NCBI GenBank assembly: GCA_050954465.1
Contig: JBPBPU010000005.1
Coordinates: 11,910 to 75,909 of the forward strand
Length of the DNA stretch: 64,000 bases
Source: Janthinobacterium lividum
Lineage (GTDB): Bacteria; Bacteroidota; Bacteroidia; Cytophagales; Hymenobacteraceae
Direction of reading: 5' to 3'
In this document: in pieces, positions 21,582-43,623 of the stretch
Layout: the number at the start of each line of letters is the position of its first letter
How positions within the stretch are numbered: position 1 is the stretch's first letter
Position numbers and translations under genes: made by a program
Notes under the pieces: generated by a model
Seen by the model: the letters and a program-made list of their open reading frames with translations, nothing else
Database searches by the model: none
Told to the model about the DNA's origin: nothing

Positions 21582-21623
21582 GAGCGCGAATTGGCGGACT
21601 AACCCGCTGGTTCGCGCTTTTTT
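21582..21623 (+). terminator. rho-independent terminator after msrB
   Basis: Stem GAGCGCGAA (21582-21590) / TTCGCGCT (21611-21618) followed by T6. Confidence 0.6.
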
Positions 21624-23504: not shown

Positions 23505-23633
23505 ACATCGGCGCAGGCCCAAGAGCCACGGCTGTTGTCCTATCCGGCCCTCTGCTGCGTACACCCGAACTGCGGCGCGAGCTTCGCTGTTTTCCCTTCA
23601 ACGCCTCGGCCTTTACCTTACCCTTCCCCACCT

Positions 23634-24532: not shown

Positions 24533-24622
24533 AGCAATGAGCAATTAGTAATGAACAAGGAGCAATGTCGTTCTTGTCTTTGAACGACATTGCTCCTTGT
24601 TCATTACTAATTGCTCATTGCT
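24533..24622. repeat. AT-richer palindromic element between convergent genes (GTAGCAATG head at 24531)
   Basis: Perfect 40-bp arms at 24533-24572 and 24583-24622 with a 10-nt loop. It abuts the sdaAA stop and overlaps the stop of the minus-strand gene by 1 nt. Confidence 0.9.
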
Positions 24623-25683
24623 CATTGCCCCACCACCACCGGCGTCATCAGCAGCTTGCTCAGGAATTCCAGGGCCGGGGCGTAGCGGCGGCGGCGCTCC
24701 CGGTAGTGCTGCCAGGCGGCTTCCTCATCGGGGCGCAGGGGCAGGCTGGTAGCGCTCAGGTGCTGCCAGCACTCGGCAAAGCGCTGGCGGTCGGGGTGGG
24801 CGGCATCCTGCTCCTCGGGGGTGCGTAGCTCAGTAGGCTCGGTTTCGGACGTATGGTCGAAGAAGCGGTGCACGCGGTTCAGGGCCAGGCAGCCAGCGGT
24901 AAAGGTTATCTCTACCTGGCGCGAGCGGGGCACGTCGAGGGCCGAGAAGAGCAGGTTGGCCGTGTCGAGGATGAGGCCGGCAGCCGTCACCCAGGAGCGC
25001 CCGCCCTGGGGCGAGCGGAAAAACGCCAGCACCGGCAGCGAGGTGTGGCTTTCGTCGATTTCTACCAGCCACTGCTCCCAGGTTAGCCACTGCGCGTCGT
25101 CGTTCTCAAAGTCGCCATCGTGCCCCAGCCACAGCAGCAGCCCACTGGCCGAGGCCGGCACCCCGGCCCGCAGCTCTAGTTGCGCCACCACTACTTCGCG
25201 CCGCGAAAACGCCTGGTAAATGGTGGGCAAATAGGAGATGAGCAACGTAAGCAGCAGCAGCCCCAGCGTAGCTTCTGAGTAGCTGAAGATGCTGGGCACC
25301 AGCCCCCTGGGCGGGGTAGTGCCCAGTGTGAGCAGGGCGCTGCCACTCAACTCGTAGCATTTGGTGAAGTTGCCCACATCCAGCGCCCAGTAAATAGCGG
25401 TGTAGCCGGCTCCTACCAGCGCCAGCCAGCCGATGGGTAAAGCCACCAGCCCCACCGGTGCATAATGCGAGAGAATACGGTCGCGCCGGGCATAGTTGTT
25501 GGCCCGCCGCGCTGCAAAGTCGAACAGCGCCCGAATGCCCCCAAACACGAACGCATTAAGCCGCACCGACTCACTGCGCGGCAGTACAAACGAGCGAATA
25601 GCGGCCGACACAGTCGTGATAACCAGCCAGCCCCCGGCCAGCCCCACCAGCAGGCGCACCCCCATTTCTACTGTAGTCGACAT
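24622..25683 (-). CDS. integral membrane protein, possibly ion-channel-like
   Basis: The N-terminal half has about 4-5 helices and a pore-loop-like LLTLGTTPP segment. The C-terminal ~170 aa look soluble. The channel assignment is weak inference. Confidence 0.55.
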   Translation of the reverse strand: MSTTVEMGVRLLVGLAGGWLVITTVSAAIRSFVLPRSESVRLNAFVFGGIRALFDFAARRANNYARRDRILSHYAPVGLVALPIGWLALVGAGYTAIYWALDVGNFTKCYELSGSALLTLGTTPPRGLVPSIFSYSEATLGLLLLTLLISYLPTIYQAFSRREVVVAQLELRAGVPASASGLLLWLGHDGDFENDDAQWLTWEQWLVEIDESHTSLPVLAFFRSPQGGRSWVTAAGLILDTANLLFSALDVPRSRQVEITFTAGCLALNRVHRFFDHTSETEPTELRTPEEQDAAHPDRQRFAECWQHLSATSLPLRPDEEAAWQHYRERRRRYAPALEFLSKLLMTPVVVGQ

Positions 25684-25752
25684 ACGGCGTGTACGGGTTT
25701 CGGCCCGGCGGCGGCTGGGTTTGCTGCCAGGACGGGCGGCGGTGAGACGCCA

Positions 25753-27681
25753 TTACTCCACCACTAGGCGGGCGGCGCTGGTGCCGACGCGCACCACGTA
25801 CACGCCGGGGGCGAGGCCGCCGGCCAGGGCGGCCTCGCCCCCGGCATCGGCCACGCTGGCGGCTACTACCCGGCCCAGCGCATCCAGCACCCGCACGGAG
25901 GCGCCCGCCTCGGCTCCGGTAAGGGTGGCGGAGCCGTGGGTTGTGCCACGGGCGGGGTTGGGGTAGAGTAGCAGGGGGGCGCTGCTGGCGGTGGCTGGGC
26001 GCGTGGCTAGGGGCTGCAAGGTAGTATCTACCACGCGGGCCAGTACGTTGGTGCTGGCGCCGGCGGTGGCGGCCACCGTGAAGCTACCGAAGCTGGCCGT
26101 GTTGTTTACGAAGCCGCCCACCACCACGCTTTGCCCACTCAGGGCCACGGCATAGCCGGTGTCGATGAGGGTGCCGCCACCCACCTGCGCCCAGTTGTAG
26201 GTGGCACTAAGGCTGTTGTCAGTGTACTTGGCCAGCACTAGGTCGTCGCTGCCGTTGGGGGCCACGCCGGGCACGGCGTTGGTGCCGGCCGCGGTGCCGC
26301 TGCCCCCAAACACCACGCTGCTGGCATTGCTGGTGCTGTTGCCGCTGAGGCCGGTTACGTACACGCTGGTGCCACTGGCGGCCACCCCGTAGCCGTAGGC
26401 GCTGCTGGTGCCGCCGCCCACCTGGCTCCAGCGGAAGGTGCCGGTGCTGCCGTTGTCCTGGTACTTGGCCAGCACTAGGTTGAGAGTGTTGGCGGTACTG
26501 GCCCCGTACTGCGGCACGGTGCCGGCCGTGGTGCCGTTGCTACCAAATACCACGGCGTTGGTGTTGGCGCGGTCGTTGAGTAGGATGCCGGTCACGTACA
26601 CGCTGCTGCCGCTCACGGCCACCGCGTAGCCGAGGTCGGCGCTGGTGCCGCCGCCCACTTGCGCCCAGTTGTAGGTAGCGTTGAGGCCGTTGTCAGTGTA
26701 CTTGGCCAGCAGGATTTCCTGGCTGCTGCTGGAAGTGGCTCCGTTCACTTGCACGTTGCCGGCCGTGGTGCCGCTGCCGCCAAAGAGCACCGCGCTGCCA
26801 TTGGCGGTGGTATTTACGAAGCTGCCGGCCACGTACACGCTGGTGCCGCTCACGGCCACGCCGCTGCCCAGGTCGCCGCCCGTGCCACCGGCTACCTGCG
26901 TCCAGCCCAGGGTGGCGCTGGCCCCGTTGTCGGTGTACTTGGCCAGCAGTAGGTCGCCGCTCAGGGTGGCGCTGGCCCCCGCCTGCGACGCCGTGCCGGC
27001 CGTAGTGCCGTTGCCCCCAAATACCACGCCCCTGGCATCGGCCGAAGTGTTGGTGAGGTAGCCGGTCACGTATATGCTGGTGCCGCTCACGGCCACACCC
27101 TGGCCCTGGTCGTTGACCGTGCCGCCGCCCACCTGCGTCCAGCGCAGGGCAGCGCTGGTGCCATTGTCCTGGTACTTGGCCAGCAGTATATCCTGGCTGA
27201 CGGTGCTGGTGGCCCCGTTCACCTGGGTGGCGCCGGCCAGAGTGCCCGCGTTCGCCAGCAGCACGCCGTTGGCATTGGCAGTGCTATTGGCCAGGGTGCC
27301 CGTCACGTACACGCTGCTGCCGGCCACCGCAATGCCGTAGCCCACGTCGCTGCCCGTGCCGCCGCCGCTGGTGCCCCAGGCCCAGGTATTGGTGGCCAGC
27401 ACGTACTTGGCCACGAACAGGTCGTTGCTGCCCGCGCTGGTGAGCGTGGTGCTGCCGAAAACCAGGCTGCCCGTGAAGCTACCCGTCACGAATACGTTGC
27501 CGCTGGCATCGGCAGCCACGGCCCGCGTGATGCTGGTGCTGCTGGTCTGGCCGGGGCCGCCAGTGGTGGCTCCCGCCCAGGCGGGCGCCTGGGCATAGGT
27601 GGTGAGCGTGGCAGGCAGCAACCCCAGCAGGAGCAGCCAGCCGCGCCGGTTCGGGGTCGGCTGAGGGGGCAGATGGTTCAT
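25753..27681 (-). CDS. T9SS-secreted SBBP-type beta-propeller repeat protein
   Basis: Signal peptide ending TYAQAP. About 8 units of W.QVGGG..D.G.GVAVSG.S.YVTG...N......V.FGG.GTTAG...GA...D.LLAKY.DNG. C-terminal sorting domain [10 protein letters not shown]...[12 protein letters not shown]...[18 protein letters not shown]. Confidence 0.85.
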
Positions 27682-27734
27682 CACAGCAAGCAAGAAGTGC
27701 CTATTTCCGGCAAGTATACGCCTTTTTCACGCCA

Positions 27735-27772
27735 AAGCGCCCGGCCGCCGCGAGGCAGCCGGGCGCGAAGCC
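27735..27772 (-). terminator. duplicated hairpin block downstream of the 895-aa T9SS cargo gene
   Basis: The 38-bp block AAGCGCCCGGCCGCCGCGAGGCAGCCGGGCGCGAAGCC is identical to 30642-30679. It has a 9-bp GC stem (GCGCCCGGC/GCCGGGCGC) and only a short U-run, so a terminator function is tentative. Confidence 0.45.
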
Positions 27773-27787
27773 GGAGCAGGCAGTGCC

Positions 27788-30475
27788 CTACTGCACCACT
27801 AGGCGCGTGGCCGCTGCCCCGGCGCGCACCAGGTACACGCCCGGTACCAGCCCGGCGGGCAGCAGGGTGGTGCCCTCGGCATCGGCGGTGGCGGTGGCGG
27901 CCACCCGGCCCAGCACATCGAACACCTGTACCAGGGTGCCGGCCCCGGCCCCGAGCAGCGTGGCCGCTCCGTAGGTTGGGTTGGGCAACAGCACTAACTC
28001 GCTAGCCTGGGCCAGCGCCGCCAGCTGTGCTCCCGCCGGGATATAGCGGGCTATATAGTTGGCCCCGATGTCACCCGCCCGGTGAAACTCACCCCCCAGG
28101 TATAGACCGTTAGCAGTCAGCGCCACTGCGGCAATGCGGCCATCTACCCCGTTGGCGAGGTCTGTGCCCAGGCTGCGCCAATTCGTGCCATCCCACTGGG
28201 CTATGTAGGTGGCCGGGGTTCCGCCCACCGTAGTGAAGTTGCCCCCCACGTACACCGTGCCGCCGCTCACGGCCAAGGCATTGACACGCAGGAACGACCC
28301 GTTGGAGGTGTTCGTGACCAGGCTACTCCAGTGCGTGCCGTCCCAAACGGCCAGGTGGGCGACCGGCATGCCACCCGCCAGTGTGAATTCGCCCCCCACG
28401 TATAGAATGCTACCCCTCACAGCTAGTGCGTACACATTGTTAAGAGGGGGGTAGCTATTTTTGGTCGGCGGGTAGCTCACCCCATTGGCGGCACCCGTGC
28501 CCAGGCTGCTCCAAGTGGTGCCGTCCCACTGGGCAATGGAGTTGGCTGCTACCCCGCCAGCCTGGGTAAAGCGGCCTCCCACGTAGAGCGTGCTACCGCT
28601 CATAGCCAGCGCGTACACTCCGCCATCCAAATGGCCACTCACCCCATTGTCGGTACCCGCACCCAGGCTGCGCCAACTGGTGCCGTCCCACTGGGCAATA
28701 TAGCTGGCCGCCGCTCCACCCGCTTTGGTAAAGTTGCCCCCCACGTAGAGCGTGCTACCGCTCACGGCCAGCGCGTTAATCCCTCTATTTACTCCATTGG
28801 CCGGGCCCGTACCCAGGCTGTGCCAGTTGGTGCCATCCCACTGGGCAATAGAGGTGGCCACCACCCCGCCTGCTTGCGTGAAGTTGCCCCCCACGTACAC
28901 TGTACTGCCGCTCACAGCCAGCGCGTTAACCATGCCATCAACTCCGTTGGCCGGGCCCGTGCCCAGGCTGCTCCACATGGTGCCGTCCCAGCGGGCTACC
29001 CGGTTGGCTGCTATCCCGCCAACCTGAGTGAATTGTCCTCCCACGTACACTGTACTGCCGCTCACAGCCAGGGCGCTAACCACATAATTGACCCCTACGG
29101 AGCCCGTACCCAGGCTGCTCCACGTGGTGCCGTCCCAGCGGGCTATCCGGTTGACTGCCCGCCCATCCATCAGCGTAAAGCAGCCTCCCGCGTACAACGT
29201 ACTGCCGCTCACGACCAAGGCGCAGTAATAGGGGTTGTACACGTTTGCCAGGCCCACCCCCGTGCCCAGACTGCGCCAGCTGGTGCCGTCCCACTGGGTC
29301 ACCTGCCGTTCGGAGCCGTATACCGGAATAAGAGCGTACTCAGCATACAGGATGCTGCCATTCACGGCCAGCGCGTAAACTACACTAGGCACGCTATTGG
29401 TTGGGCCCGCACCCAGGCTGCTCCACGTGGTGCCGTCCCAGCGGGCGACGGAATTGGCCGCCACCCCACCCGCTTGCGTAAAGTAGCCCCCTACATACAG
29501 CGTACTGCCGCTCACGGCCAGCGCGTACACTGTACTATTGACGCCGTTGGTCGCGCCCGTACCCAGGCTGCTCCACGTGGTGCCGTCCCAGCGGGCGACG
29601 GAGTTGGCCGCCACCCCGCCCGCCTTCGTGAAATTCCCCCCTGCGTACAGCGTGCTGCCGCTCACGGCCAGCGCGTCAACCTCGCCATTTACTCCGTTGG
29701 CCGTGCCCGTGCCCAAGGTGCTCCACGTCGAGCTTACCACGTCCCATTGGGCCACGTTATTGGCCCCCACCGGCCCGGCCCGGTCAAAGTACCCCCCCAC
29801 GTACAGCGTGCGGCCGCTCAGGGCCAGGGCCTGGACACCGAAGTTCGGGGCGACGTAGCTACCGATGCCGGTAGTGCCGCCCGCGCTCAGGGCACTCCAG
29901 TGCGTGCCGTCCCACTTGGCGACGCAGCTGGCCGCTACTCCGCCCGCTTGACTAAAGTATCCCCCCACGTACAGCGTACTGCCGCTCATGACCAAGGCGC
30001 GCACCTCGCCACTTACCCCGTTGGCCGGACCCGTGCCCAAGGTGCTCCACTGCGTGCCGTCCCACTGGGCTATGTGGTTGGCCACCGCCCCACCCGCTGC
30101 GGTAAATCCTCCTCCTACGTACACCGTGCTGCCACTAACGGCTACGGCGGCAACATACATATTTACGCCATTCTGCGTGCCAACCGGGCCTTCGCCCAGG
30201 GCCTCCCAGTCGCCAGCCGCCGAGGCGTTTGTGGCGGTGGAGCGCAGCACGGGCTGCCCCCTCTTGCCGTAGCTGAGCTGGTAGCCCCTGGCATCGAACG
30301 AGCCGCTGGCCCCGGCGCGCAGGGTGCCATCGGGGCGCAGGATGGTGGCTACCGAGGGGGCCTGGCTATGGCCGGGCAGCGCCAGGCTGAGCAGCAGCGC
30401 CAGCAGGCAGATGGTGAAGGAAGCTGCCCTGCAGGCAGCTGGTGCCCGCAGGAGCCGGGGGGTAGCAAAGAGCAT
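27788..30475 (-). CDS. T9SS-secreted protein with ~50-aa beta-propeller-blade repeats
   Basis: About 14 units of V.ALAVSGSTLYVGG.FT.AGGV.AN.IA.WDGT.WS.LGTG..NGV. C-terminal sorting domain LLPNPTYG...VQVFDVLGRVAA...LVPGVYLVRAG..ATRLVVQ. The start is at ATG 30475. Confidence 0.85.
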   Translation of the reverse strand: MLFATPRLLRAPAACRAASFTICLLALLLSLALPGHSQAPSVATILRPDGTLRAGASGSFDARGYQLSYGKRGQPVLRSTATNASAAGDWEALGEGPVGTQNGVNMYVAAVAVSGSTVYVGGGFTAAGGAVANHIAQWDGTQWSTLGTGPANGVSGEVRALVMSGSTLYVGGYFSQAGGVAASCVAKWDGTHWSALSAGGTTGIGSYVAPNFGVQALALSGRTLYVGGYFDRAGPVGANNVAQWDVVSSTWSTLGTGTANGVNGEVDALAVSGSTLYAGGNFTKAGGVAANSVARWDGTTWSSLGTGATNGVNSTVYALAVSGSTLYVGGYFTQAGGVAANSVARWDGTTWSSLGAGPTNSVPSVVYALAVNGSILYAEYALIPVYGSERQVTQWDGTSWRSLGTGVGLANVYNPYYCALVVSGSTLYAGGCFTLMDGRAVNRIARWDGTTWSSLGTGSVGVNYVVSALAVSGSTVYVGGQFTQVGGIAANRVARWDGTMWSSLGTGPANGVDGMVNALAVSGSTVYVGGNFTQAGGVVATSIAQWDGTNWHSLGTGPANGVNRGINALAVSGSTLYVGGNFTKAGGAAASYIAQWDGTSWRSLGAGTDNGVSGHLDGGVYALAMSGSTLYVGGRFTQAGGVAANSIAQWDGTTWSSLGTGAANGVSYPPTKNSYPPLNNVYALAVRGSILYVGGEFTLAGGMPVAHLAVWDGTHWSSLVTNTSNGSFLRVNALAVSGGTVYVGGNFTTVGGTPATYIAQWDGTNWRSLGTDLANGVDGRIAAVALTANGLYLGGEFHRAGDIGANYIARYIPAGAQLAALAQASELVLLPNPTYGAATLLGAGAGTLVQVFDVLGRVAATATADAEGTTLLPAGLVPGVYLVRAGAAATRLVVQ

Positions 30476-30641
30476 ACGGTACGGGAAGTAAAGCGAAATA
30501 ATTGGCGGCACGCAGAGGGCCTCGCGGAGAACAATGGCTATCTTCTGGCACTTAGGCCATAGCTACCTCAAAGGTAAAGCACCGAATCTTTTGGTCTGGC
30601 AGTTATCCGGGGTTTATTTTCATTGGCCCACCCCGGCAGCC

Positions 30642-30679
30642 AAGCGCCCGGCCGCCGCGAGGCAGCCGGGCGCGAAGCC
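30642..30679 (-). terminator. duplicated hairpin block downstream of the 1171-aa T9SS cargo gene
   Basis: The same 38-bp block as 27735-27772, placed 17 nt after the stop. Confidence 0.45.
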
Positions 30680-30695
30680 AGGAATAACCAGGCGC

Positions 30696-33600
30696 TTACT
30701 CCACCACCAGCCGGGTGGCGCTGCTCTCCGCCCGCACCACGTACACGCCCGGCGCAAGGCCCGCTGGCAACGGTAGCCGGGCCGCACCCGTGGCGTCGGC
30801 CGTGGCGGTGGCCACCACGCGGCCCAGCGCATCCAGCACCTGCACGGCCGCGCCGGGGGAGGTGCCGGCCAGGGTGGTGCTGCCAGCCGTGGGGTTGGGG
30901 TACAGTGCCAGGCCAGCCCCGGCCGGCAGGGCAGCGCGCACGGGCAGCGTACCCGTATCGGTGACGCGTGCGAGTAGGCTGCAGCCCCCGGCTGCCGGCA
31001 GGTTGAGGGTTATCGGGCCATAGGTAGCCACCGGGGGAGTGCTGCCCGCCACGTACACCTGCTGCCCGCTCAGGGCCACGCCGAAAGCGGAGTCGGAGTC
31101 GGGGCCGCCGCCTACCCGCGTCCAGCCCAGGCTGGCGCTGGCCCCGTTGTCGAGGTAGCGGGCCAGCAGCACGTCGTAGCTGGTAGTGGCACTGGCGCCG
31201 GGCACCGCTACCGGGCCAGGGGCGGTGCCACTGCCCCCAAACACTACGGCGGTAGCATTGGCAGTGCCGCCACCGAGTATGGTACCGGCCACGTACACGC
31301 TGGTACTGGTGGCGGCCACCCCATAGCCCACGTCGCCCCCGGTGCCGCCGCCCACCTGCGTCCAGCCCAGGGTGGCGCTGGTGCCGTTGTCGGTGTACTT
31401 GGCCAGCAGCAGGTCGGGGCTGCTGGTGCTGCTGGCACCGTACTGCGGGCTGGTGCCGGCTGTGGTGCCACTGCCGCCGAATACAACAGCGTCGGCGTTG
31501 CTGCTGCTGTTGGTAATAAAGCCGGTCACGTATATGCTGGTGCCGCTCACGGCCACGCCGATGCCCTGGTCGCTGCCCGTGCCGCCACCCACCTGCGTCC
31601 AGCCCAAGGTGCCGGTGGTGCCGTTGTCGGTGTACTTGGCCAGCACTACATCCTGGCTGCTGGTGCTGCTGGCGCCATTTACCTGGGTGGTGCCCACGGT
31701 GGTGCCGCTGCCGCCAAACAGCACGCTGGTGCCGTTGGCGGCGTTGTTGGTGAGGGTGCCCGCCACGTACACGCTGGTGCCGCTCGCGGCCACGCCGTTG
31801 CTCTGGTCGCTGCCGGTGCCGCCACCCACCTGCGCCCAGCCGAAGGTGGCCGTGGTGCCGTTGTCGGTGTACTTGGCCAGCACCAGGTCTTCGCTGAGGG
31901 CGGTGCTGGCCCCGTTCACGATGGCTGTGCCGGTGGTGGTGCCGTTGCCCCCAAAGGTTACTGCACTGCCGTTGGCGCGGCTGTTGCTAATGCTGCCCGT
32001 TAGGTACACGCTGGTGCCGCTCACGGCCACGCCCCCGGCCCGGTCGGTATCGGTGCCGCCGGCCACCTGGGTCCAGCGCAGGATGGCGCTGGTGCCGTTG
32101 TCCTGGTACTTCACCAGCACCAGGTCGGCGGTGCTGGTGCTGCCGATGCCGTTTACCTGCGCGGTGCTGGTGAGCGGGTTGGGGCCGCCGAAGGCCACGG
32201 CATTGGCGTCGGTGCTGCTGTTGGTGATGGTGCCCGCCACGTATACGCTGGTGCCCTGCACGGCAATGCCGATGCCGTTGTCGTAGCCGGCGCCGCCGCC
32301 GCGCTGCGCCCAGGCCCAGGTCCCGGTAGCCGGCACGTACTTGGCCACAAACAGGTCGGTGCCGCCCGCGCTGCTGAGGCGGGTGCTGCCGAAGTCCACC
32401 TCGCCCGAGAAGTAGCCGGTCACGAACACGTTGCCCTGGGCATCGGTAGCCACGGCGCGGGTGGTGCTGCTGCCCCCGTTGGTAGCGGCGGTCAGCGTAG
32501 CCCAGGCGCCAGTGCTGCCGGCGTCGGTGGCCTGGGCCAGCACCGTCCGCATGAAGGTGGTGCCCTGGGCGGCCTGGCCGCTGGCGGGGCTAAAATTGAG
32601 CAGGGTGGAGAGGCCGGTGCCGGGCGACATGGTGCCCCCCGCGTACACGCTGCTGCCGCTCACGGCCACGCCGGCGGCCAGGTCGGGGCCGGTGCTGCCG
32701 CCCGCCCGCGCCCAGCCAAAGGAAGCCGTGGTGCCCTGGTCGGTGTACTTGGCCAGCACCAGGTCGTCGGTGGTGGGTGCCGCCGCGCCGGGCACAGCCA
32801 CCCCAGCGGCGCCGCCGCCGCCGCCGCCGCCAAAGAACACGCCGCTGGCATTGGCGGCGTTATTGTTGCACGTACCGGTGAGGTACACGCTGGTGCCCTG
32901 CACGGCCACGCTGGCGCCGTAGTCGGCGCCCGCGCCGCCGCCCACCTGCGCCCAGCCGAAGGAAGCCGTGGCGCCGTTGTCGGTCCATTTGGCCAGCAGC
33001 AGGTCGTAGCTGAGGGCGGCATTGGCCCCGTTCACTACCACGGTGCCGGCCGTGGTGCCGCCGCCCCCAAAGAGTACGCTGGTGCCATTAGCGGCGGTGT
33101 TCACCAGCGAGCCGGCCACGTACACGCTCGAGCCGCTCACGGCCACGGCCAGCCCACCGTCGTAGCTGCTGCCCCCACCCACCTGCGTCCAGGTCAGGGC
33201 GCCGGTGGCGCCGGTGTCGGTGTACTTAGCCAGCACCAGGTCGGGGCTGCCGCCGGGGTTAGCGCCGTTCACCTGGGTGGTGCCGGCGGTGGTACCGCCG
33301 CCGCCGAAGAGCACACCGTAGGCGTTGTTGGCGGTGTTGTAAAGCTGGCCGGTGAGGTACACGCTAGTGCCACTGGCCGCCACGCCGTAGCCCAGGTCGT
33401 TGTAGGTGCCGCCGCCCACCTGCGTCCAGCCCAGGGTGGCGCTGGCGCCGTTGTCCTGGTACTTGGCCAGCAGCAGGTCGTTGCTGGCGGTAGCGGTGGC
33501 CCCGTTCACCTGCACGGTGCCAGCGGTGGTGCCGCCGCCCCCAAAGAGGGCGCCATTGGAGTTGGCGGCGTTGTTGTAGAGGGTGCCGCTGACATACACG

Positions 33601-34211
33601 CTGGTGCCGCTCACGGCCACACCGGTGCCCTGGTCGAGGCTGCTGCCGCCGCCCACTTGCGTCCAGCCCAGGGTGGCGTTGGTGCCTTGGTCGGTGTACT
33701 TGGCCAGCAGCACATCCTGGCTGGTGGTGGTGGTAGCCCCCAGTACCGGGGTGGCGCTGGTGGCCGGGGTGGTGCCCCCGAAGCGCACGGCGCTGGCATC
33801 GGCACGGCTGTTGGTGATGGCGCCGGCCACGTAGATGCTGGTGCCCTGCACGGCCAGGCCGTAGCCTGCGTCGGGGCCGGTGCCGCCGCCGCGTTGGGCC
33901 CAGGCCCAGGTGCCGGTAGCGGGCACCCACTTGGCTACAAACAGGTCGGAGCCGCCGGTGGCGCTCACCAGCACGGTGCTGCCAAAGGCCACGCTCCCGT
34001 CGAAGGCGCCCGCCACGAACACGTTGCCGCTGGCGTCGGTGGCCATGGCGTAGGTTTGGGTGTGGCCGTTCACCTGGGTGGGGCTGCCGGGGGCGGCCAG
34101 GTCCCAGGCAGGCGCTTGGGCGTGGGCAATACCGGTGGGCAGCAGTAGCGCCGCACAGGTGGCTGCGGAAGCTAGTAGCTGGCGCAGGAATCGGGTAGCA
34201 GAAAAAAGCAT
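30696..34211 (-). CDS. T9SS-secreted SBBP-type beta-propeller repeat protein (two propeller arrays)
   Basis: Paralog of 25753-27681. It has a signal peptide (..GIAHAQAP) and two blocks of the same ~60-aa repeat, separated by a linker near aa 520-570. C-terminal sorting domain [10 protein letters not shown]...[12 protein letters not shown]...[18 protein letters not shown]. Confidence 0.85.
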
Positions 34212-34397
34212 AGGGTAGCGAATAAGGGGGAGGGTTCTCTACCTGGCCCTGGCCCTGCGGGCAGTCTGGCCGGCCAGGTAGACGCCTCAAAGCTAACCAG
34301 CTAGCTTCATTCCCGCACCAGGTATCGGGCGGGCGGCAACCCGGCGCTGCCGTGCTGGTTTTCGCCGGCCGCCCCGGCAGGCTGCGCCCTATGCAAA

Positions 34398-34430
34398 CAG
34401 CCCTCCCGGCCGGGCGGCCAGGAGGGCTGT
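34398..34430 (-). terminator. hairpin downstream of icd
   Basis: A 10-bp stem, ACAGCCCTCC / GGAGGGCTGT, about 24 nt after the icd stop. The U-run is poor. Confidence 0.35.
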
Positions 34431-34453
34431 ATGGGGAAGGCAGCGAGAACTGG

Positions 34454-35683
34454 TTATCCCAGCTTTTTCCGGAGGTTTTCGTCCAGGGCTTCGAGAAACT
34501 CCTCGGTGTAGAGGTAGTCGCGGCCGTGCTCTACCTTGTTGCCATGGATGCAGACGGCCAGGTCCTTGGTCATCTTGCCGCTTTCCACGGTTTCAACGCA
34601 CACTTGCTCCAGGGCGTGGCAGAAGTCAATAAGTTCCTGGTTGCCGTCGAGCCTGCCCCGGAATTCGAGTCCGCGCGTCCAGGCGAAGATGCTGGCGATG
34701 GGGTTGGTGCTGGTGGGCTTGCCGGCCTGGTGCTCACGGTAGTGGCGCGTCACGGTGCCGTGGGCGGCTTCGGCCTCCATCACGGTGCCGTCGGGCGTTA
34801 CCAGCGTCGAGGTCATGAGGCCGAGCGAGCCGAAGCCCTAGGCTACGGTGTCGCTTTGCACGTCGCCGTCGTAGTTTTTGCAGGCCCACACAAAGTTGCC
34901 GTTCCACTTCAGCGCCGAGGCCACCATGTCGTCAATCAGGCGGTGCTCGTAGGTGATGCCGGCCGCCTTGAACTTGGCCTGGTAGTCCTGCTCGTAAATC
35001 TCCTGGAAGATGTCCTTGAAGCGCCCGTCGTACTTCTTGAGGATGGTGTTCTTGGTGCTCAAGTACAGCGGCCAGCCTTTCATCAGGACCTGGTTGAAGC
35101 AGGCGTGGGCGAAGCCCCGGATGCTTTCGTCGGTGTTGTACATGGCCAGGGCCACGCCGTCGCTCTTGAAGTTGAACACCTCGAAGCTCTGGGCCGCGCC
35201 GCCGTCTTCGGGCTGGAAGGTGATGGTAAGCTTGCCCTTGCCCTTGGTTACGAAGTCGGTGGCGCGGTACTGGTCGCCGAAAGCGTGGCGGCCAATGCAG
35301 ATGGGGGCCGTCCAGTTGGGCACCAGGCGGGGCACGTTCTGCATCACAATGGGCTCGCGGAACACGGTGCCGTCGAGGATGTTGCGGATGGTACCGTTGG
35401 GCGACTTCCACATCTGCTTGAGCCCGAACTCAGCTACCCGCTCCTCGTCGGGCGTGATGGTGGCGCACTTGATGCCCACGCCATACTGCCGGATGGCATT
35501 GGCCGAGTCGATGGTGACCTGGTCGTTGGTTTCATCGCGGTACTCGATGCCGAGGTCGTAGTACTTGATGTCGAGGTCGAGGTAGGGCAGGATGAGCTTG
35601 CCCTTGATAAACTTCCAGATGATACGGGTCATCTCGTCGCCATCCGGTTCCACGACGGGATTGGCTACTTTAATCTTGGCCAT
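34454..35683 (-). pseudogene. icd: NADP-dependent isocitrate dehydrogenase (eukaryote-like IDH1/2 type) interrupted by one in-frame TAG
   Basis: Two in-frame ORFs, 34838-35683 and 34454-34816 (with bridging codons), read continuously as ...[22 protein letters not shown].... They align along their whole length with IDH1-type enzymes ([89 protein letters not shown]). The TAG is at 34838-34840, where the family has Gln. Confidence 0.9.
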
Positions 35684-35864
35684 GTTAGGGCAGGGGTTGA
35701 GGTAAAATAAGTGAGGATATTGGCGTAGCAGCGTGCTACATAAAGGTCTGGCTGGCTCCCGCACGGGCGGAGCCAACCCTGTCTGCGCGCTTCGCAATCG
35801 ATTGCAATTCCAGCGCAGTTCATTTGCGGCACTGCGTACGCCCAAAAAGCACCTACCAGCGCCG

Positions 35865-37235
35865 CTACTGCCGCTCCCGCCACAGCTCCCGAAACGACTT
35901 GTCGGCCACGCGCAGGCTTTCGCGGCGCTTGCGCCAGCCGGCCTGGTCGAGCAGGTAGCCGAGGCTGAAATCCTTGAGGCGGCCGGGCAGCACGTCGAGC
36001 GCCCAGCGGTGGCGCATGCTCCAGCGCCAGAGGCTGATGGCCGCTTTTTCCACCAGCGCATTATGCCCCTCGGCCACGCTCTCCTGGCGATTGAGCAGCA
36101 GCAGGTTGTGCAGGTTGATGCGCACCGGGCACACGCTGGTGCAGGCCCCGCACAGGCTGCTGGCGAAGCTCAGATGCTGGTGCTCCTTCAGGCCCGACAA
36201 ATGCGGGCTGATAACCGAGCCGATGGGGCCGGAATAGGTGGTCTCGTAGGTGTGGCCGCCGATGTTCTTGTACACCGGGCACACGTTGAGGCAGGCCCCA
36301 CACCGGATGCAGCGTAGCGCCTCGCGGCGGTCGGGCCGGGCGAGCAGGTTGGTGCGGCCGTTGTCAAGCAATATTACCACCATCTCCTCTGGCCCATCGG
36401 GCTCGCCGGGCTGGCGGGGGCCGAAGTACACGGTGTTGTACACCGTTACTTGCTGGCCGGTGCCGCTGGTACTGAGCAGCGGCCAGAACAAATCGAGGTC
36501 GGTAAGCTGCGGAATGATTTTCTCGATGCCCACCACGGCAATGTGCAGGCCCGGAAACGTGGCCGAGAGGCGGGCGTTGCCCTCGTTTTCGGTTACGGCC
36601 ACGCCGCCTTCCTTGGCCAGCAGAAAGTTGCCGCCCGTGATGCCCACCTCGGCGCTGGTGTATTTGTCGCGTAGCAGGTGCCGGGCCGTGAGCACGAGTT
36701 GCTGGGCATCGTCGGTGGGCGCTATGCCGAGGTGCTTGACGAAAATAGCGGCGATGTCCTGCTTGCTCAGGTGCATGGCCGGGGTCACGATGTGGTAGGG
36801 TCGCTCGCCGTTGAGCTGCACGATGTACTCGCCCAGGTCGGTTTCCACCGATTCCACGCCCCGCTCTTTGAGGTAGTGGTTGACGTGGATTTCCTCGGTG
36901 GTCATGCTCTTGGCCTTCACCACCGTGCGGGTGTGGCGGGCGGCGGTGAGGCGGCCTATTTCATCCAGCGCCTCCTGGGCGTCGTTGGCCCACACCACGC
37001 GGCCACCGCGAGCCGTAAAGGCGGCTTCGAACTGCAGCAGGTACTCATCGAGATTTTCGAGCACCTGCGCCTTGAGGTAGGCGGCGCGGGCGCGGGCCAG
37101 GTCGTGGGCCTGGTAGAGTTGGAGGCCAGCGCTCACGGCCGCATCATACTTGCCGATGTTGAAGCGGATTTTGCGGCGGTGTTCGAGGTCGAAGGCTTTA
37201 GTTTCGGCGTCGGCTTGGAAGATGTCGGCTTTCAT
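35865..37235 (-). CDS. lutB: LutB/LldF-type lactate utilisation iron-sulfur protein
   Basis: Motifs seen: [29 protein letters not shown], and two 4Fe-4S-type motifs ([14 protein letters not shown] and [10 protein letters not shown]). The start is at ATG 37235. The upstream 11 codons of the track ORF come from the repeat. Confidence 0.85.
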
Positions 37236-37256
37236 CAAGTAGTGCAAGAGGGCGAT

Positions 37257-37361
37257 GTAGAGACGCATCTTTGCGTCTTGTCGTTAGCTTCGCTGACCTC
37301 CGGTTGAACGAGGCTACTGGCGCGTTTCAAACAACGCCGAGACGCAAAGATGCGTCTCTAC
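37257..37361. repeat. palindromic REP-like element (GTAGAGACG head), copy 1
   Basis: Perfect 22-bp arms at 37257-37278 and 37340-37361. Each arm is a hairpin (AGACGCA..TGCGTCT). The 61-nt spacer carries TTAGCTTCGCTGACCTCCGGTTG. Confidence 0.9.
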
Positions 37362-37365
37362 AACC

Positions 37366-39021
37366 TCACGGCTTATTCGAGTCCACCACCACGCGCTCGT
37401 CCCGGTTGGCCAGTTCCCAGGCTGTAAAAAACACCAGCCGTGCCCGTGCTTCCAGCTTGTCAAACTCAATTTTGCTCACCTCATCGCTCGCCTCGTGGTA
37501 GTCGGCGTGCACGCCATTGAAGAAGAAAGCTACCGGGATTTTGTGCACCGCGAAGTTGTAGTGGTCGGAGCGGTAATAAAACCGGTTCGGGTCCTCAGGG
37601 TCGTTGAAGCGGAAATCCAGGTTGAGGTTGCCGTGCTGCTCGTTGGCGGCCAGCAGCACCGCGTGCAGCTGCGACGATAATTTGTCGCTCCCAATCACGT
37701 ACACGTAGTCGGGCTTGCCCTCGTGGCCCACGTCGGTGCGCCCAATCATGTCGATGTTGAGGTCGGCCACGGTGGCGGCCAGCGGGTACACCGGGTGCGA
37801 GGTGTAGTACTCCGAGCCCAGCAGCCCCTTTTCTTCGCCCGTATTGGCCAGGAATAGGAGGCTGCGGCGCGGTCCGTGCCCGGCGTGCGCGGCCCGCGTA
37901 AACGCCCGCGCCAGCGCCAGCATTCCCACCGTGCCCGAGCCGTCGTCGTCGGCCCCGTTGTACACCTGCCCGTTGATGATGCCGAGGTGGTCGTAGTGCG
38001 CCGACACTACCAGGATTTCGTCTTTTTTATCGGTGCCCGGCAAGAAGCCTAAAACATTTTCAGTGCTCACCGTCGTGCGTTCCTGCGCGGCGTTAACGGT
38101 GAATTTCACGGGCTTGAATTTGCCCGTTGCGGGCGCTTTGGCCGCCGCCGTTTGGTAGGCTTTCAGGGCCGCCTCTTTGGCACCGAGCAGCTTGAGCCCG
38201 AGCGCCGACGAGACAAAAAACGCGGGTGCCCGCCCGGCCGGCTGGTCGGCAAAGGCAATGGTGGGCTGCATGAGGCGCGGCCCGAGGCGGGTGGCCATTT
38301 TCTGGAAATTCGCGACAGGTTCCAGGCTCACGAAAAACACGCTACGGGCACCTTTTTGCGCAGCCAAAGCAGCTTTAGCGCGGTAGTCGACGCCCCACTT
38401 GGTGGGGGTGCCGTCGGCGCTGAGAGCCGGCTTGCCATCGGCTGTGCGTGGTTCCCCGAGCAGCATGAGCACGTCCCTGCCTTTCACATCGTGCCCGGCG
38501 TAGTCGGAGTAGGTGCCCTGCTCGATGCCGTAGCCCACAAATACCGGCTGCACCACGGCCCCGGCCTGGAACGGCGAGCGGCCGACAGCATAAAAATCGG
38601 TGAGCCACTGGTAGGTGGTGCCGCCCGCTGCCAGCGTGCCGCCCGGCTGCCAGGCACTACGCTCTAGGCCAAAGGTTTGCAAGTAGGGGTTAGCCGTACC
38701 GGGCACCGGGGCCGTCAGGCTGTCGAGGGCGAACTGCTGACTAATGTAGGCCGCCGCCATTTTTTGGCCTTTGGTACCGGTTTCGCGGCCCTCGTACTCG
38801 TCCGAAGCCAGCACGCTCAAGTCGCGGCGCAGGTTTTCCTGGGTGATGTAGCGCTCGGCGTAGGCCGTGGCTGGGTCGGCGGCTTGCGGGGGCACCAGCA
38901 CCGGGCCGTGCGGGGCCACGCCACCGTCGGCAGAATTCTTGGTTTTGATTTTGACTTTGGCGGGCTGAGCCAGCAGCGCGGCGGGCAGCGACAGGGCAGC
39001 AAGCAGGAAGAGATGTTTCAT
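37366..39021 (-). CDS. M28-family aminopeptidase (secreted)
   Basis: Has a signal peptide. Motifs seen: SAHYDHLG, GADDDGSGTVGMLALARAF, TGEEKGLLGSEYY, HADYHEASD. Confidence 0.85.
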   Translation of the reverse strand: MKHLFLLAALSLPAALLAQPAKVKIKTKNSADGGVAPHGPVLVPPQAADPATAYAERYITQENLRRDLSVLASDEYEGRETGTKGQKMAAAYISQQFALDSLTAPVPGTANPYLQTFGLERSAWQPGGTLAAGGTTYQWLTDFYAVGRSPFQAGAVVQPVFVGYGIEQGTYSDYAGHDVKGRDVLMLLGEPRTADGKPALSADGTPTKWGVDYRAKAALAAQKGARSVFFVSLEPVANFQKMATRLGPRLMQPTIAFADQPAGRAPAFFVSSALGLKLLGAKEAALKAYQTAAAKAPATGKFKPVKFTVNAAQERTTVSTENVLGFLPGTDKKDEILVVSAHYDHLGIINGQVYNGADDDGSGTVGMLALARAFTRAAHAGHGPRRSLLFLANTGEEKGLLGSEYYTSHPVYPLAATVADLNIDMIGRTDVGHEGKPDYVYVIGSDKLSSQLHAVLLAANEQHGNLNLDFRFNDPEDPNRFYYRSDHYNFAVHKIPVAFFFNGVHADYHEASDEVSKIEFDKLEARARLVFFTAWELANRDERVVVDSNKP

Positions 39022-39051
39022 ATAAGTCCTTGTTGTACAATTTTATACGAT

Positions 39052-39155
39052 ATAGAGACGCATCTTTGCGTCTCGTCGTTAGCTTCGCTGACCTTCGGTT
39101 GTTTGAAACACGCCAGTAGTCTCTTCAACGACGAGACGCAAAGATGCGTCTCTAC
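39052..39155. repeat. palindromic REP-like element (GTAGAGACG family), copy 2
   Basis: 29-bp arms at 39052-39080 and 39127-39155 with 1 mismatch, at the first base (ATAG vs GTAG). The spacer shares the core with copy 1, but its central ~25 nt are in inverted orientation. Confidence 0.9.
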
Positions 39156-39174
39156 ATGCAGCCGGATACCAAAT

Positions 39175-39654
39175 TTACTCTTTGGTAATCAGCACCGTAG
39201 CATAGGCCGCCACGCCTTCTTGCCGGCCCACAAAACCCAGCTTTTCGGTGGTAGTGGCCTTGATGGAAATGGCGTCCTCGTCCACCTGCATCACCTGGGC
39301 CAGCACTTGGCGCATGGCCGGAATGTGGGGGTTTACTTTGGGCTGTTCGAGGCAGATGGTGGAGTCGATGTTGCCGATTTCGTAGCCGCGCTCGCGCAGC
39401 AGCTGCACTACGCCGGTCAGCAGCTTTTTGCTGTCGATGCCTTTGTACTGCGGGTCGGTGTCGGGAAAGTGAAAGCCTATGTCGCGTAGGTTGGCGGCCC
39501 CCAGCAGGGCGTCGCAGATAACGTGGATGAGCACGTCGGCATCGGAGTGGCCGAGGGCGCCGTGGGTGTGCGGCACCTCGATGCCGCCGAGCCAGAAGGG
39601 CAGGCCCGGCTGAAGCTGGTGGACGTCGTAGCCGAAGCCAACGCGGATTTTCAT
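39175..39654 (-). CDS. ispF: 2-C-methyl-D-erythritol 2,4-cyclodiphosphate synthase
   Basis: Motifs seen: RVGFGYDVHQL, GHSDADVLIHVICDALLGA, ATTTEKLGFVGR. Confidence 0.95.
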   Translation of the reverse strand: MKIRVGFGYDVHQLQPGLPFWLGGIEVPHTHGALGHSDADVLIHVICDALLGAANLRDIGFHFPDTDPQYKGIDSKKLLTGVVQLLRERGYEIGNIDSTICLEQPKVNPHIPAMRQVLAQVMQVDEDAISIKATTTEKLGFVGRQEGVAAYATVLITKE

Positions 39655-39920
39655 GGAAGCGGGTTTGAAAGGAAGAGGCGCAAAGGTATTTGCCAGGAAT
39701 ACGCAGAAATCCCCCGGCTAGCTGGCCGAAAATATTTCCAACAAAAATAGCAATACTTTTCAACTAATTTCATTAGCTTCGTATAATCAAACCCGCTAAC
39801 TGTCAAGCGCTGTCCGGCAGTAGCGCAAATTTTATGGTAGCGATTAAAGTAAACTAGGCTGCGCTGCGTCAACGCTCAGGTAAAATCAGTTGGCACGGAG
39901 GACTGACAGAGAAATAAGCT

Positions 39921-39948
39921 GGAAACTTGAAACTCATTAAAAGTTTCC
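39921..39948. promoter_or_regulatory. candidate TetR operator
   Basis: The inverted repeat GGAAACTT-N12-AAGTTTCC ends 23 nt upstream of the TetR-family start codon, in an AT-rich divergent intergenic region. Confidence 0.3.
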
Positions 39949-39970
39949 GGTGTATCTTTGCACCAGTAAC

Positions 39971-40585
39971 ATGGACATCAAAGACCGCATTTCTCAGTTT
40001 GCCTCCTCGCTGTTTTGGCGCAACGGCGTCCGTAGCGTGAGCATGGACGACATTGCCGCCGGACTGGCCATGTCGAAAAAAACCCTCTACAAAAGCTTCG
40101 ACAACAAAGACGAGCTGGTGCTGGCCGTGATGCAGCGGCAGCTCACCGACTCGCAGAGCCAATGCACCCGCGTAGCCGGCGAGGCCGCCAACGCCGTGGA
40201 AGAAATGGTGAACATCTCGCGCTGGGCCGAGCAGCAGTTCAGCCACATTCACCCCGGCATTTTTTACGACCTGCGCAAGTACCACCCCCAGGCGTGGGAG
40301 CTGTTTATGGCGCACAAAAAGACGTTCATCCTCACCCAGATAACCAACAACCTGCGGCGCGGCATCGCCGAGGGCCTCTTCCGGCCCGACCTCGACGTGG
40401 ACGTGCTTGCCCGCCTCAGCCTGGCCCAGATTGAGCTGGCCTTCGACCCGGAGCTGTACCCAACGGCCGACTTCACGCTGGCGCGGGTCAACCGGGTGTT
40501 CGACGAGCACTTTCTGCTCGGCGTGGCTACGCTCAAAGGGCACCGGCTCATCAATACATACCAACACATTTCGGAGGAAGAATAA
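39971..40585 (+). CDS. TetR/AcrR-family transcriptional regulator
   Basis: N-terminal HTH VRSVSMDDIAAGLAMSKKTLYKSF. It lies first in the efflux gene cluster. Confidence 0.85.
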   Translation: MDIKDRISQFASSLFWRNGVRSVSMDDIAAGLAMSKKTLYKSFDNKDELVLAVMQRQLTDSQSQCTRVAGEAANAVEEMVNISRWAEQQFSHIHPGIFYDLRKYHPQAWELFMAHKKTFILTQITNNLRRGIAEGLFRPDLDVDVLARLSLAQIELAFDPELYPTADFTLARVNRVFDEHFLLGVATLKGHRLINTYQHISEEE

Positions 40586-40624
40586 GCTGTTTACCGGCTT
40601 GCGTTCCTTCTTTTCTATTCACGT

Positions 40625-42298
40625 ATGAGTAACCTCCTGCTACGCCCCTTAGTGGCCGTGCTGCTTGGCACCGCGCCCCTGGCTGGGCTGGCCCAAAGCC
40701 GCCCGGCCGCGCTGCCCGACCAGCCCGGTGCCGGGCCAATGAGCCTGAGCTTGTCGCAAGCCGTGCACTACGCTGTGCAAAACCGCCCCAGCCTGCAGGC
40801 CACGCGCCTGGCCCAGCAAACTGCCCACGCCAAAGTCGGCGAAATCAAAGCTGCCGGCTTGCCGCAACTCAACCTGGCCGCCAACGTGGCCGACAACTTC
40901 AAGCTGCAAAAGTCGCTGGTCGATTTTTCGAGCTTCGGGGGCGGCACCGTCCTCAGCGGCACCACCCTCACCCAGGCCGACATTGCCAAAGCGCAAGCCG
41001 GGCAGGCTGTCACGCTGAACCCCGCCTACACGGCGGTAGCGTCTACCGGGCCGCAGCCGTTTGCGTTCGGCCTCCAATACGCTGGCAACAGCAGCCTCTC
41101 GTTGTCACAGCAACTCTTCGATGGCTCGTATCTCATTGGTCTGAAGGCTTCTAAGGTGTACGAGGAGTTGTCGAAAAAGCAAACGCAGCAGGCCGAAATC
41201 GACGTGGTGGAGCAGGTAAGCAAGGCGTATTACAGCACGCTCGTGGCCCGCTCGCGCCTTACCCTGCTCTCGCGCAACGTGCAGCGCCTCGACACCCTGC
41301 TCTACCAAACCAGCCAGACGTTCAAGGCTGGTTTCGCCGAAAAGCTCGACGTAGACCGCCTGCGCGTGCAGCGCAACAACCTGGTGGTGGAGCAGCAACG
41401 AGCGCAACGCCTCACCGAGTTGAGCCTAGCCCTGCTCAAGTTTCAGATGGGCCTAGCCCAGACCCAGGGCGTGCAGCTTACCGACTCGCTCGGCGCGGCC
41501 GTAGTGGATGCCGGGGCGTTGCGCCGCCGCCTGGGCGTGGCCAACTTCAGCACGGGCGGCAGCAATAACGGCTCCGTGCCCACGGCCCCGGTGCCGACGG
41601 CCGGCGCGGGCGCCGACCAGGCCCGCCGGGACCAGCAGTCGGCCCTGAGTGGTGGACAGCCACCCCAGGCCGCTGCGGCGTTCAACTATAATAACCGCAT
41701 CGAATTTTCGACCCTCGAAACCCAGCAGGCGCTGGCGGGTCTCGACATCCGCAGCCGCACGGCCGGGGCGTATCCGCGCCTCGTGTTTTCGGCGGCCTAC
41801 GGCTTCAGCGGCTCGGCCCCCACGGCGGGCGACCTGTTTGCTTTCCGGGGGCCCGACTCGCGCAACTCGGCGGGCTACCTCAACCAGAACTGGTTTGGCT
41901 TCGGCAACGTGGGGTTGGGCCTCACGGTGCCCGTGTTTGATGGCTTCCGCCGCAAGTACCAGATTCAGCAGTCGCGCATTGCCCAGCAGACCATTGAGAA
42001 AGGCTTCGAGACGCTGCGCCAAAGCATTGACCTGCAGGATGCGCAGAGCCGCACTACCCTTATCAACGCCCTCGACGTGCTCGATAACCAGCGTGCTAAC
42101 CTCGACCTGGCTGCCGACGTGGCCCGCGTGTCGCGCATCAAGTTCCAGGCCGGCGTAGGCTCGAACCTGGAAGTGATAACCGCCGAAACCTCGTTGCGCG
42201 AGTCGCAAACCAACTACTACTCGGCTATTTATGACGTGCTGGTAGCCAAGGTAGACCGCGACAAGGCAACGGGCGAGCTGTACTCGCAGGCCAAGTAA
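40625..42298 (+). CDS. TolC-family outer-membrane efflux protein
   Basis: Has a signal peptide and two halves of coiled-coil/beta OEP repeat architecture (LSLSQAVHYAVQNRPSLQA...; later ...QQSRIAQQTIEKGFETLRQSI...). It lies upstream of the MFP and RND genes. Confidence 0.85.
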   Translation: MSNLLLRPLVAVLLGTAPLAGLAQSRPAALPDQPGAGPMSLSLSQAVHYAVQNRPSLQATRLAQQTAHAKVGEIKAAGLPQLNLAANVADNFKLQKSLVDFSSFGGGTVLSGTTLTQADIAKAQAGQAVTLNPAYTAVASTGPQPFAFGLQYAGNSSLSLSQQLFDGSYLIGLKASKVYEELSKKQTQQAEIDVVEQVSKAYYSTLVARSRLTLLSRNVQRLDTLLYQTSQTFKAGFAEKLDVDRLRVQRNNLVVEQQRAQRLTELSLALLKFQMGLAQTQGVQLTDSLGAAVVDAGALRRRLGVANFSTGGSNNGSVPTAPVPTAGAGADQARRDQQSALSGGQPPQAAAAFNYNNRIEFSTLETQQALAGLDIRSRTAGAYPRLVFSAAYGFSGSAPTAGDLFAFRGPDSRNSAGYLNQNWFGFGNVGLGLTVPVFDGFRRKYQIQQSRIAQQTIEKGFETLRQSIDLQDAQSRTTLINALDVLDNQRANLDLAADVARVSRIKFQAGVGSNLEVITAETSLRESQTNYYSAIYDVLVAKVDRDKATGELYSQAK

Positions 42299-42317
42299 TC
42301 TATCTGTAACACTTTAT

Positions 42318-42475
42318 AAGAACGTCAGGCAAAAAGGCGGTCATGCTCATCTAGCGTACGCTTGCCGAAGCATCTTGCTCGCCAACTAACTCAATCGGTT
42401 GCGCCGCTGACTCTCGGTTCAATGACGCGAGCGAAATGCTTCGGCAAGCGTACGCTAGATGAGCATGACGTTCTT
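42318..42475. repeat. palindromic element (AAGAACGTCA / TTGCCGAAGCAT family) between the TolC and MFP genes
   Basis: 43-bp arms at 42340-42382 and 42427-42469 with 2 mismatches. The outer AAGAACGTCA / TGACGTTCTT ends are at 42318-42327 and 42466-42475. The left arm carries a 12-nt insertion (GGCAAAAAGGCG). Confidence 0.85.
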
Positions 42476-42495
42476 TTTATCCCGTTCTATTTCTC

Positions 42496-43623
42496 ATGAC
42501 TAAGAACACCTTTCTCCTACTCGCCGCCACGGCTGCCCTTGCCTCTTGCGGCGGCGGTGCCAAAGACCCCAAGGCTGAGCTAGCCAAGCTCAAGGCCGAC
42601 CAGGCTGCTACCCAGGCCAAAATAGCCGACCTAGAAGCCAAAACCGGCGCGGGAGCCAAAGACTCGGCCAATGCCGCCGTGCCAGTGTCGGTGCTGAAAG
42701 TGGCCCCCGAGAATTTCGCTGGCTTCCTCGACGTGCAGGGCCGGGTCGATTTCGACCAAAGCTCTACCGTAAGCTCGCGGGCGGCGGGTACCCTCACCAC
42801 GGTGCGCGTGCAGCGCGGCGACCAGGTGCGCAAAGGCCAGATACTCGCCACCGTAGATGCCAGTGTGCTCGAAGCCAGCTTGGCCGAGCTGCGCACCCGC
42901 ATGGACTTGGCCCGCACCGTGTATGAAAAGCAGGCCAGCCTCTGGAAACAGCAGATTGGCACCGAAATTCAGTACCTGCAGGCCAAAAACAACTACGAGG
43001 CGCTGCAACGCAACCTCTCCACCATCAACCAGCAAAAGGCGCTCTACAACGTGGTGGCACCCTACGCCGGCACCGTGGATAACGTGCTGCCCAAGCTCGG
43101 CGAAACTGTGGCCCCCGGCACGCCCGTGGCGCAGCTCAACAGCGGGCAAGGCGGCAAAATCCTGGCCGACGTATCGGAAGCCTACGCGGGCAGCATCAAG
43201 GCCGGCGACAAGGCGATGGTGAGCTTGCCCGACCTTGGCACCACCGAGATTGCGAGCACCGTGCGCACCGTGAGCCGCAATATTTCGGCCACCAGCCGCA
43301 CCTTCACCGTGGAGCTGCGCCTGCCCACCAATAAGGCCAGCCAGCTGCGCTCCAACATGATAGCCACCGTGCGCATCCAGAACTACGGCCACCAGAACGC
43401 CACCGTGCTGCCCGTAGACCTGGTGCAGCACGACGAGCAGAACGCCTACGTGCTGGTGGTAAACCAGTCAACAGGCAAGCCCGTGGCCCAGAAGCGCATT
43501 ATTAAAGTAGGCCAGACTTACAACGGCAAAGTGGAAGTAACCAGCGGCCTCAAAGACGGCGACTCGGTTATTTCGGCTGGGTATCAGAATTTGAATGAGG
43601 GGCAGATGGTAAAAATCAGCTAA
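42496..43623 (+). CDS. efflux RND transporter periplasmic adaptor (membrane fusion protein)
   Basis: Lipobox [11 protein letters not shown]|GGG. Has a coiled-coil hairpin region and barrel domains ([19 protein letters not shown]..., [12 protein letters not shown], ...VKIS). Confidence 0.9.

Follow-up and report, generated by a model that had tools for sequence, protein, structure and literature searches.

The window, by which we mean the whole 64 kb stretch of DNA that was analysed (G+C = 63%), carries on its minus strand, at 34454..35683, a gene of the type II (IDH1/IDH2-like, homodimeric) NADP-isocitrate dehydrogenase (IDH) family, as indicated by full-length matches to the NF006156 and TIGR00127 profiles, to structures in the PDB and to orthologues from Hymenobacter. 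The gene comprises 410 codons in a single frame, namely 281 sense codons, a TAG, a further 127 sense codons and a TAA, and translation of the minus strand bears out the preliminary description of this DNA in placing both halves in the same frame. What is absent is an uninterrupted reading frame of ~410 residues for an IDH subunit, owing to the TAG at codon 282. Membership of the class was assessed with NF006156, TIGR00127 and PF00180, and with the stop masked as X the translation gave full-length profile matches above the curated cutoffs: NF006156 (NADP-dependent IDH) scored 724.6 bits against a cutoff of 335, aligning residues 1-408 with profile positions 1-402 of 403, and TIGR00127 scored 718.9 bits against a cutoff of 397, again over the full length. 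Porcine/human IDH2 and IDH1 structures in the PDB match the translation with E-values of ~1e-183 to 1e-196. The substrate and metal ligands of IDH1, which we take to be T77, S94, R100, R109, R132, Y139, K212, D252, D275 and D279, have their counterparts in the translation (T77, S94, R100, R109, R132, Y139, K211, D251, D274 and D278), and the ligand columns are invariant among 20 aligned homologues.

The closest relatives of the gene are from Hymenobacter, with 93-96% amino-acid identity and 87-90% DNA identity. Judged from its sequence, the gene is a member of the type II NADP-IDHs by descent, but perhaps not a functional one. It is homologous over its full length to the eukaryote-like homodimeric enzymes of this type, found in Bacteroidota and as the mitochondrial and cytosolic IDH2 and IDH1, and it has kept their ligands, but unlike them it is broken at codon 282 and has private residues at three positions (Pro13, Gly28 and Val199). 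Opposite the gene lie two antisense ORFs on the plus strand, one of 452 codons (34352-35710) and one of 188 codons (34998-35561), with very high third-position GC. The 188-codon ORF appears 'conserved' in relatives because IDH itself is conserved, and we rejected both as genes, regarding them as shadow ORFs of the kind typical of high-GC genes.

Conservation of the interrupted codon

The in-frame TAG at codon 282 (34838..34840, minus strand) replaces a glutamine that translation and alignments mark as universally conserved. It aligns to the Gln of the motif ...SD(I/T)(L/V)AQGFGSLG in the IDH2 and IDH1 structures, and the column holds Q in all 120 of the closest database proteins and is encoded by CAA (61) or CAG (19) at 80 of 80 genome loci. 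A metagenome scan with the flanking 32-mer, in which either C or T was permitted at the site, returned four contigs with an exact match, 73-90% identical in DNA across the gene, and all four have C at the site and therefore CAG. TAG occurs at this codon in none of these 120 proteins, 80 loci and four contigs. In H. setariae, a stretch of 27 nt is the same as in the window, with the C/T position as the sole difference. Since every relative has a Gln codon here and H. setariae differs by the C only, one C>T transition explains the stop. Both the proposal that the TAG splits an otherwise full-length IDH at a universally conserved Gln and its attribution to a single C-to-T change (CAG to TAG) are thus substantiated, and the locus has what defines a nonsense pseudogene at the level of the codon, a stop at a conserved sense position that is missing from the orthologues. 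Searches for proteins identical to either IDH fragment (N- or C-terminal) or to the product of the neighbouring LutB gene gave no match, and the ten best IDH clusters are singletons.

From the motif alignment and the numbering of D275 and D279 in IDH1, codon 282 presumably corresponds to Q283 of human IDH1. In that enzyme the alpha10 regulatory segment spans residues 271-285 and the second half of the large domain residues 286-414, with the domain border at 285/286 (PMC10802581). The stop falls, in IDH1 numbering, at the end of the alpha10 segment and directly before large-domain residues 286-414, and residues 282-290 of the window protein are invariant in 20 of 20 aligned homologues. A part needed for function is removed by the stop, from which we infer the loss of activity itself.

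Substitutions elsewhere in the gene

Three further codons on the minus strand depart from the homologue columns. Codon 13 (35645..35647) is CCG and encodes Pro, one T>C from CTG, at a position that is Leu in 199 of 199 close homologues and that Hymenobacter orthologues encode as CTG, CTC or CTT; the oddity noticed here at the outset, when Leu or Met was expected at this position, is therefore genuine. Codon 28 (35600..35602) is GGC (Gly), one A>G from GAC, in a column that is otherwise Asp, Glu or Asn; codon 199 (35087..35089) is GTC (Val), one C>T from GCC, in a column of Ala (GCC or GCG codons) or Ser; neither Gly28 nor Val199 occurs in any of the 120 closest homologues. The initial impression that every motif was retained and that there was no other lesion holds for the ligands, which are all present, but not for the rest of the protein, given Leu13Pro in an invariant column and the two substitutions, Asp28Gly and Ala199Val, that are absent from those homologues.

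To put these changes in proportion, the IDH copy has private changes at two of 234 invariant columns, and at least two such changes are found in just five of 199 homologues (top ~3%), while the control genes ClpP and LutB have 0/108 and 0/166, respectively, and ClpP has no residue that is missing from its 120 homologues. Private non-synonymous and synonymous changes number 11:19 in the IDH copy versus 34:193 pooled over six Hymenobacter orthologues (odds ratio 3.3, Fisher p = 0.008), with the intact orthologue at locus L005, at 9:19, lying near the IDH copy. A crude terminal-branch dN/dS is ~0.18 for the IDH copy and 0.01-0.13 for the others, and the contrast between IDH and the control genes is not significant (Fisher p about 0.2, our own rough estimate). 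The signal of relaxed constraint on the IDH copy therefore appears modest. Even so, Leu13Pro at an invariant site together with two unprecedented substitutions suggests either an earlier loosening of constraint or repeated hits on the copy. A predicted structure intended to place residues 13, 28 and 199 was set aside for its mean pLDDT of 44 and shallow alignment; this poor model assigns, with low confidence, a strand to residue 13 and helices to residues 28 and 199.

Sequence context of the change

The stop lies within the palindrome CCTAGG (34837..34842), derived from an inferred ancestral CCCAGG by C>T and the sole copy in the 64 kb window. The ancestral sequence inferred for these codons, GCC CAG GGC, which is present at loci L004, L006 (H. 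setariae) and L008, contains CCAGG, of which the inner C is the mutated base. Dinucleotide shuffles give an expectation of 21.5 +/- 4.6 copies of CCTAGG in the window against the one observed; relative to expectation, CTAG reaches 0.43 and CCWGG 1.67. The enrichment of CCWGG and the depletion of CTAG are both explicable by codon usage, which is probably the cause, with a Vsr/Dcm-like or restriction-avoidance effect as a possibility. The scarcity of CCTAGG itself follows from coding constraints, because its three readings, CCT-AGG, C-CTA-GG and CC-TAG-G, all bring in a stop or codons that are rare when genomic GC is high and, the site being palindromic, the same codon limits hold for both strands. 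We preferred these constraints over a restriction system as the cause of the scarcity.

The change recalls the amber hotspots of E. coli lacI, which occur at Dcm sites through deamination of 5-methylcytosine (CCAGG to CTAGG; Coulondre et al. 1978, in PMC12606429). In the IDH gene, too, the inner C of CCAGG has become T and CAG has become TAG. However, eight of the 30 possible nonsense GC>AT sites in the gene share this context, so that it would be met by chance in ~27% of cases, and only one of the ten C>T changes on the IDH branch, the stop itself, is at CCWGG. Neither a CCWGG cytosine-5 methyltransferase nor Vsr is present among the window genes. We therefore kept the Dcm hotspot as a resemblance only, in view of the 8/30 and of the nine remaining C>T changes, none of which is at CCWGG, and the CCAGG context is evidence for neither deamination nor a nanopore miscall.

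Elsewhere in the window, an McrB-like AAA_5 ATPase (59920-61311) and McrC (62109-63152), separated by a small unknown ORF, make up a 5-methylcytosine-dependent restriction system (region 59920-63152). The RmC specificity of McrBC would be compatible with CmCWGG self-methylation. About 2 kb from this McrBC-type system, between a response-regulator/oxidoreductase gene and a histidine-kinase gene, the stretch at 56500-57900 has low GC (39-53% versus the 63% average), no long ORF and many CTAG sites. An intergenic stretch after clpP (18308-18390) contains an element of ~22 nt, CGACACCTCACCTCCTAGCCCC, twice, 57 bp apart, with several more CTAG sites nearby.

Use of TAG in the window

Of the 37 window genes, 14 end in TAG, and in five of these a G follows, as it does at the internal stop (TAG-G). 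The list of genuine TAG stops drawn up earlier (2437, 10323, 12984, 54890 and 62092) agrees with the gene ends, and with TAG as an ordinary terminator the rejection of a genome-wide reassignment is well founded. The LutB/LldF gene directly upstream of IDH (35865..37268, minus strand) also ends in TAG and, because this TAG sits at the C-terminal position of its homologues, serves as a control for a true stop. ARAGORN found no tRNA gene in the 64 kb window, hence none with a CUA anticodon there, and an Rfam search of the window gave no match; no second IDH was found among the genes within the window either.

The ~36 other window genes have full-length domain matches, none being split or frameshifted, and no other in-frame stop was detected among them; four same-frame adjacent ORF pairs in the window are separate genes. 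The RNA around and after the TAG (121 nt) has a folding z-score of -1.38, with 19 of 200 shuffles folding as well. Eight codons past the TAG, Met290 opens a downstream ORF of 120 codons (34454..34816, minus strand), which corresponds to the second half of the large NADP-binding domain.

Genomic neighbourhood

Comparison with relatives places the IDH gene, together with three large repeat-protein genes (1171, 907 and 646 aa), in a lineage-specific block of ~10.1 kb (25753..35864, minus strand), flanked by LutB on one side and, on the other, by a conserved ORF of 376 codons whose function is unknown. With the LutB protein as query, relatives much closer than those from the IDH search were found (92-94% amino-acid identity), and the contigs of these relatives share the gene order MFP-OEP-TetR / IspF-M28 peptidase-LutB with window positions 35865-43623. 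In two of them (metagenome contigs L085 and L086), LutB is followed by 27 bp (7384-7410) and then by the orthologue of window 24622-25752, with SdaA, the M48 peptidase and MsrB next, exactly as in window 21052-24530. Two other relatives, both MAGs, have a HipBA toxin-antitoxin module in the slot (L087, 7487-9034). The content of the slot after LutB differs from one close relative to another. Around the ~10 kb block, neither border repeats nor mobility genes were found.

Since the block is absent at the same site in the nearest relatives, it is plausible that the icd copy within it has been relocated or is an additional one. Its unusual location does not, however, prove an extra copy, because icd neighbourhoods differ among all the Hymenobacter examined; the IDH locus shows no synteny with those of eight Hymenobacter species and, as these are not syntenic with each other either, the synteny test says nothing on paralogy. 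Scans for promoter and terminator consensus sequences found nothing, which is expected since Bacteroidota use a different type of promoter.

Four large proteins of 646-1199 aa are encoded in the window, at 6726-10325, 25753-27693, 27788-30511 and 30696-34211. Three of the four contain repeated modules of ~75 residues (...GTSVYV(A/T)G...LLAKYTDNG...), and one has a match to the Pfam family Por_Secre_tail. The 646-aa and 1171-aa proteins have near-identical C-terminal tails, running from ...LDALGRVVA... through ten residues to ...RLVVE, and in sequence these tails resemble type IX secretion sorting signals. Beyond this, Pfam gave just weak Rax2/DUF5122 beta-propeller matches, in one large protein.

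Discussion

We consider it probable that the TAG is a real and young nonsense mutation, read by ordinary termination and leading to loss of function of this IDH copy. Under this explanation, a C>T transition in the sequenced DNA would have turned Gln282 (CAG) into an amber stop, release factor 1 would terminate at codon 282 as it does at other TAGs, and the product would be a fragment of 281 residues that lacks the second half of the large NADP-binding domain. With half of that domain lost, the copy should yield essentially no enzyme; near-cognate tRNA-Gln reading through at trace level would yield a very small amount of wild-type protein. The lesion appears young, because the gene has neither frameshifts nor further stops and its 127 downstream codons are highly conserved. 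An aerobic heterotroph cannot normally do without IDH. It is plausible that the genome carries another functional icd outside this locus, and such an extra copy would explain why the loss is tolerated. The glutamate auxotrophy proposed earlier for the strain, in case it has no second IDH, presupposes a sole icd, whereas the block is absent at this site in the nearest relatives and the copy may have been relocated or may be additional.

The explanation that competes most directly is that the organism has CAG and an intact icd, and that the T is a miscall, whether a modification-related long-read error, the consensus of a metagenome bin from a mixed population or a polishing error. A lone substitution in an otherwise perfect, strongly conserved and normally essential gene is what such an error would look like, the T stands where CCAGG has its inner C, and base modification is documented to produce substitution errors at C and G positions when an assembly is built from nanopore reads alone (PMC11610603); the searched collections also contained no independent sequence of the organism. 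Yet ~55 kb of coding sequence is otherwise clean, without frameshifts or other internal stops, ClpP and LutB have no odd residues, and among the ~400 CCWGG matches in the window no second one has been turned into a stop in this way, while the nine remaining C>T changes of the IDH branch all lie outside CCWGG. Leu13Pro, Asp28Gly and Ala199Val would need three more local errors, unless they are real divergence, and a concentration of several unusual changes in a single gene, when the assembly is otherwise clean, is easier to reconcile with a real gene under locally relaxed constraint than with random errors. We accordingly regard a miscall as rather unlikely.

It is much less probable still that the TAG is decoded at a useful level, by an amber-suppressor tRNA encoded elsewhere in the genome or on a prophage (such as a tRNA-Gln of the supE kind, with a CUA anticodon) or by unusually efficient near-cognate readthrough, with full-length IDH being made. 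The stop does lie exactly at a Gln codon, where a supE-type suppressor or a near-cognate tRNA-Gln would insert Gln, and the 127 downstream codons are in frame and conserved, but this conservation is equally expected of a young pseudogene. The window yielded neither a tRNA nor an Rfam match, TAG is heavily used as a terminator (including in the TAG-G context and at the homologous end of LutB), the IDH gene is alone in having an in-frame TAG, both among the window genes and among its relatives, and the RNA after the stop folds no better than shuffles. Since TAG is a normal stop and neither a tRNA, another in-frame stop nor an RNA structure accompanies it, recoding is unsupported, and the readthrough or suppression entertained in the preliminary description loses its footing. 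The case resembles supE-type amber suppression, or the recoding of TAG to Gln in Bacteroidota phages, in that the stop is at a Gln and insertion of Gln restores the wild type; it differs from both in a window without a suppressor tRNA or other in-frame TAGs and in the role of TAG as a major terminator. The specific version in which a chromosomal or prophage amber-suppressor tRNA-Gln decodes the TAG, so that a free-living Hymenobacter would make its only TCA-cycle IDH through suppression while TAG remains a major terminator, strikes us as highly improbable. Pyrrolysine at the TAG was rejected, given the conserved Gln, the common use of TAG as a terminator and the lack of pyl among the window genes. 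Least credible of all is a split enzyme, in which translation stops at 282 and restarts at Met290 and the fragments of 281 and 120 residues assemble to an active IDH. An ATG does stand eight codons beyond the stop, and the break adjoins the boundary between the small and large domains (285/286 in IDH1; PMC10802581). However, such an enzyme would drop QGFGSLGL (282-289), invariant in 20 of 20 homologues, no split form is found among the 120 best-scoring proteins or the 80 loci, and there is no evidence of a restart signal. Met290 is itself invariant in the homologues, so that the ATG is ancestral and not a special adaptation, and the invariance of residues 282-290 makes a two-piece enzyme without QGFGSLGL unlikely.

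Taken as a real nonsense mutation, the feature is of an ordinary kind and belongs to an already-known class. It has the marks of an ordinary bacterial pseudogene of the type annotated 'pseudo; internal stop', with one nonsense change at a conserved site, no relatives that carry the stop and TAG as a stop elsewhere; it differs in affecting a central TCA-cycle enzyme that is normally indispensable and in sitting in a lineage-specific block. The sequences show the lesion itself, its uniqueness, the normal usage of TAG and the surroundings of the gene in the genome; that the base call is right, that activity is lost and that redundancy is possible is what we infer. The finding has no bearing on open questions of the genetic code or of IDH enzymology, and its interest would rise if the complete genome had no other IDH together with a tRNA with a CUA anticodon. 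For annotation it is a typical 'internal stop' case, in which the reads warrant a check before a pseudogene label is applied. If the mutation is real, the strain is left without this copy of an enzyme central to the TCA cycle and relies on another IDH, or else needs external glutamate or 2-oxoglutarate; the latter need would be a small point about its physiology and its cultivation.
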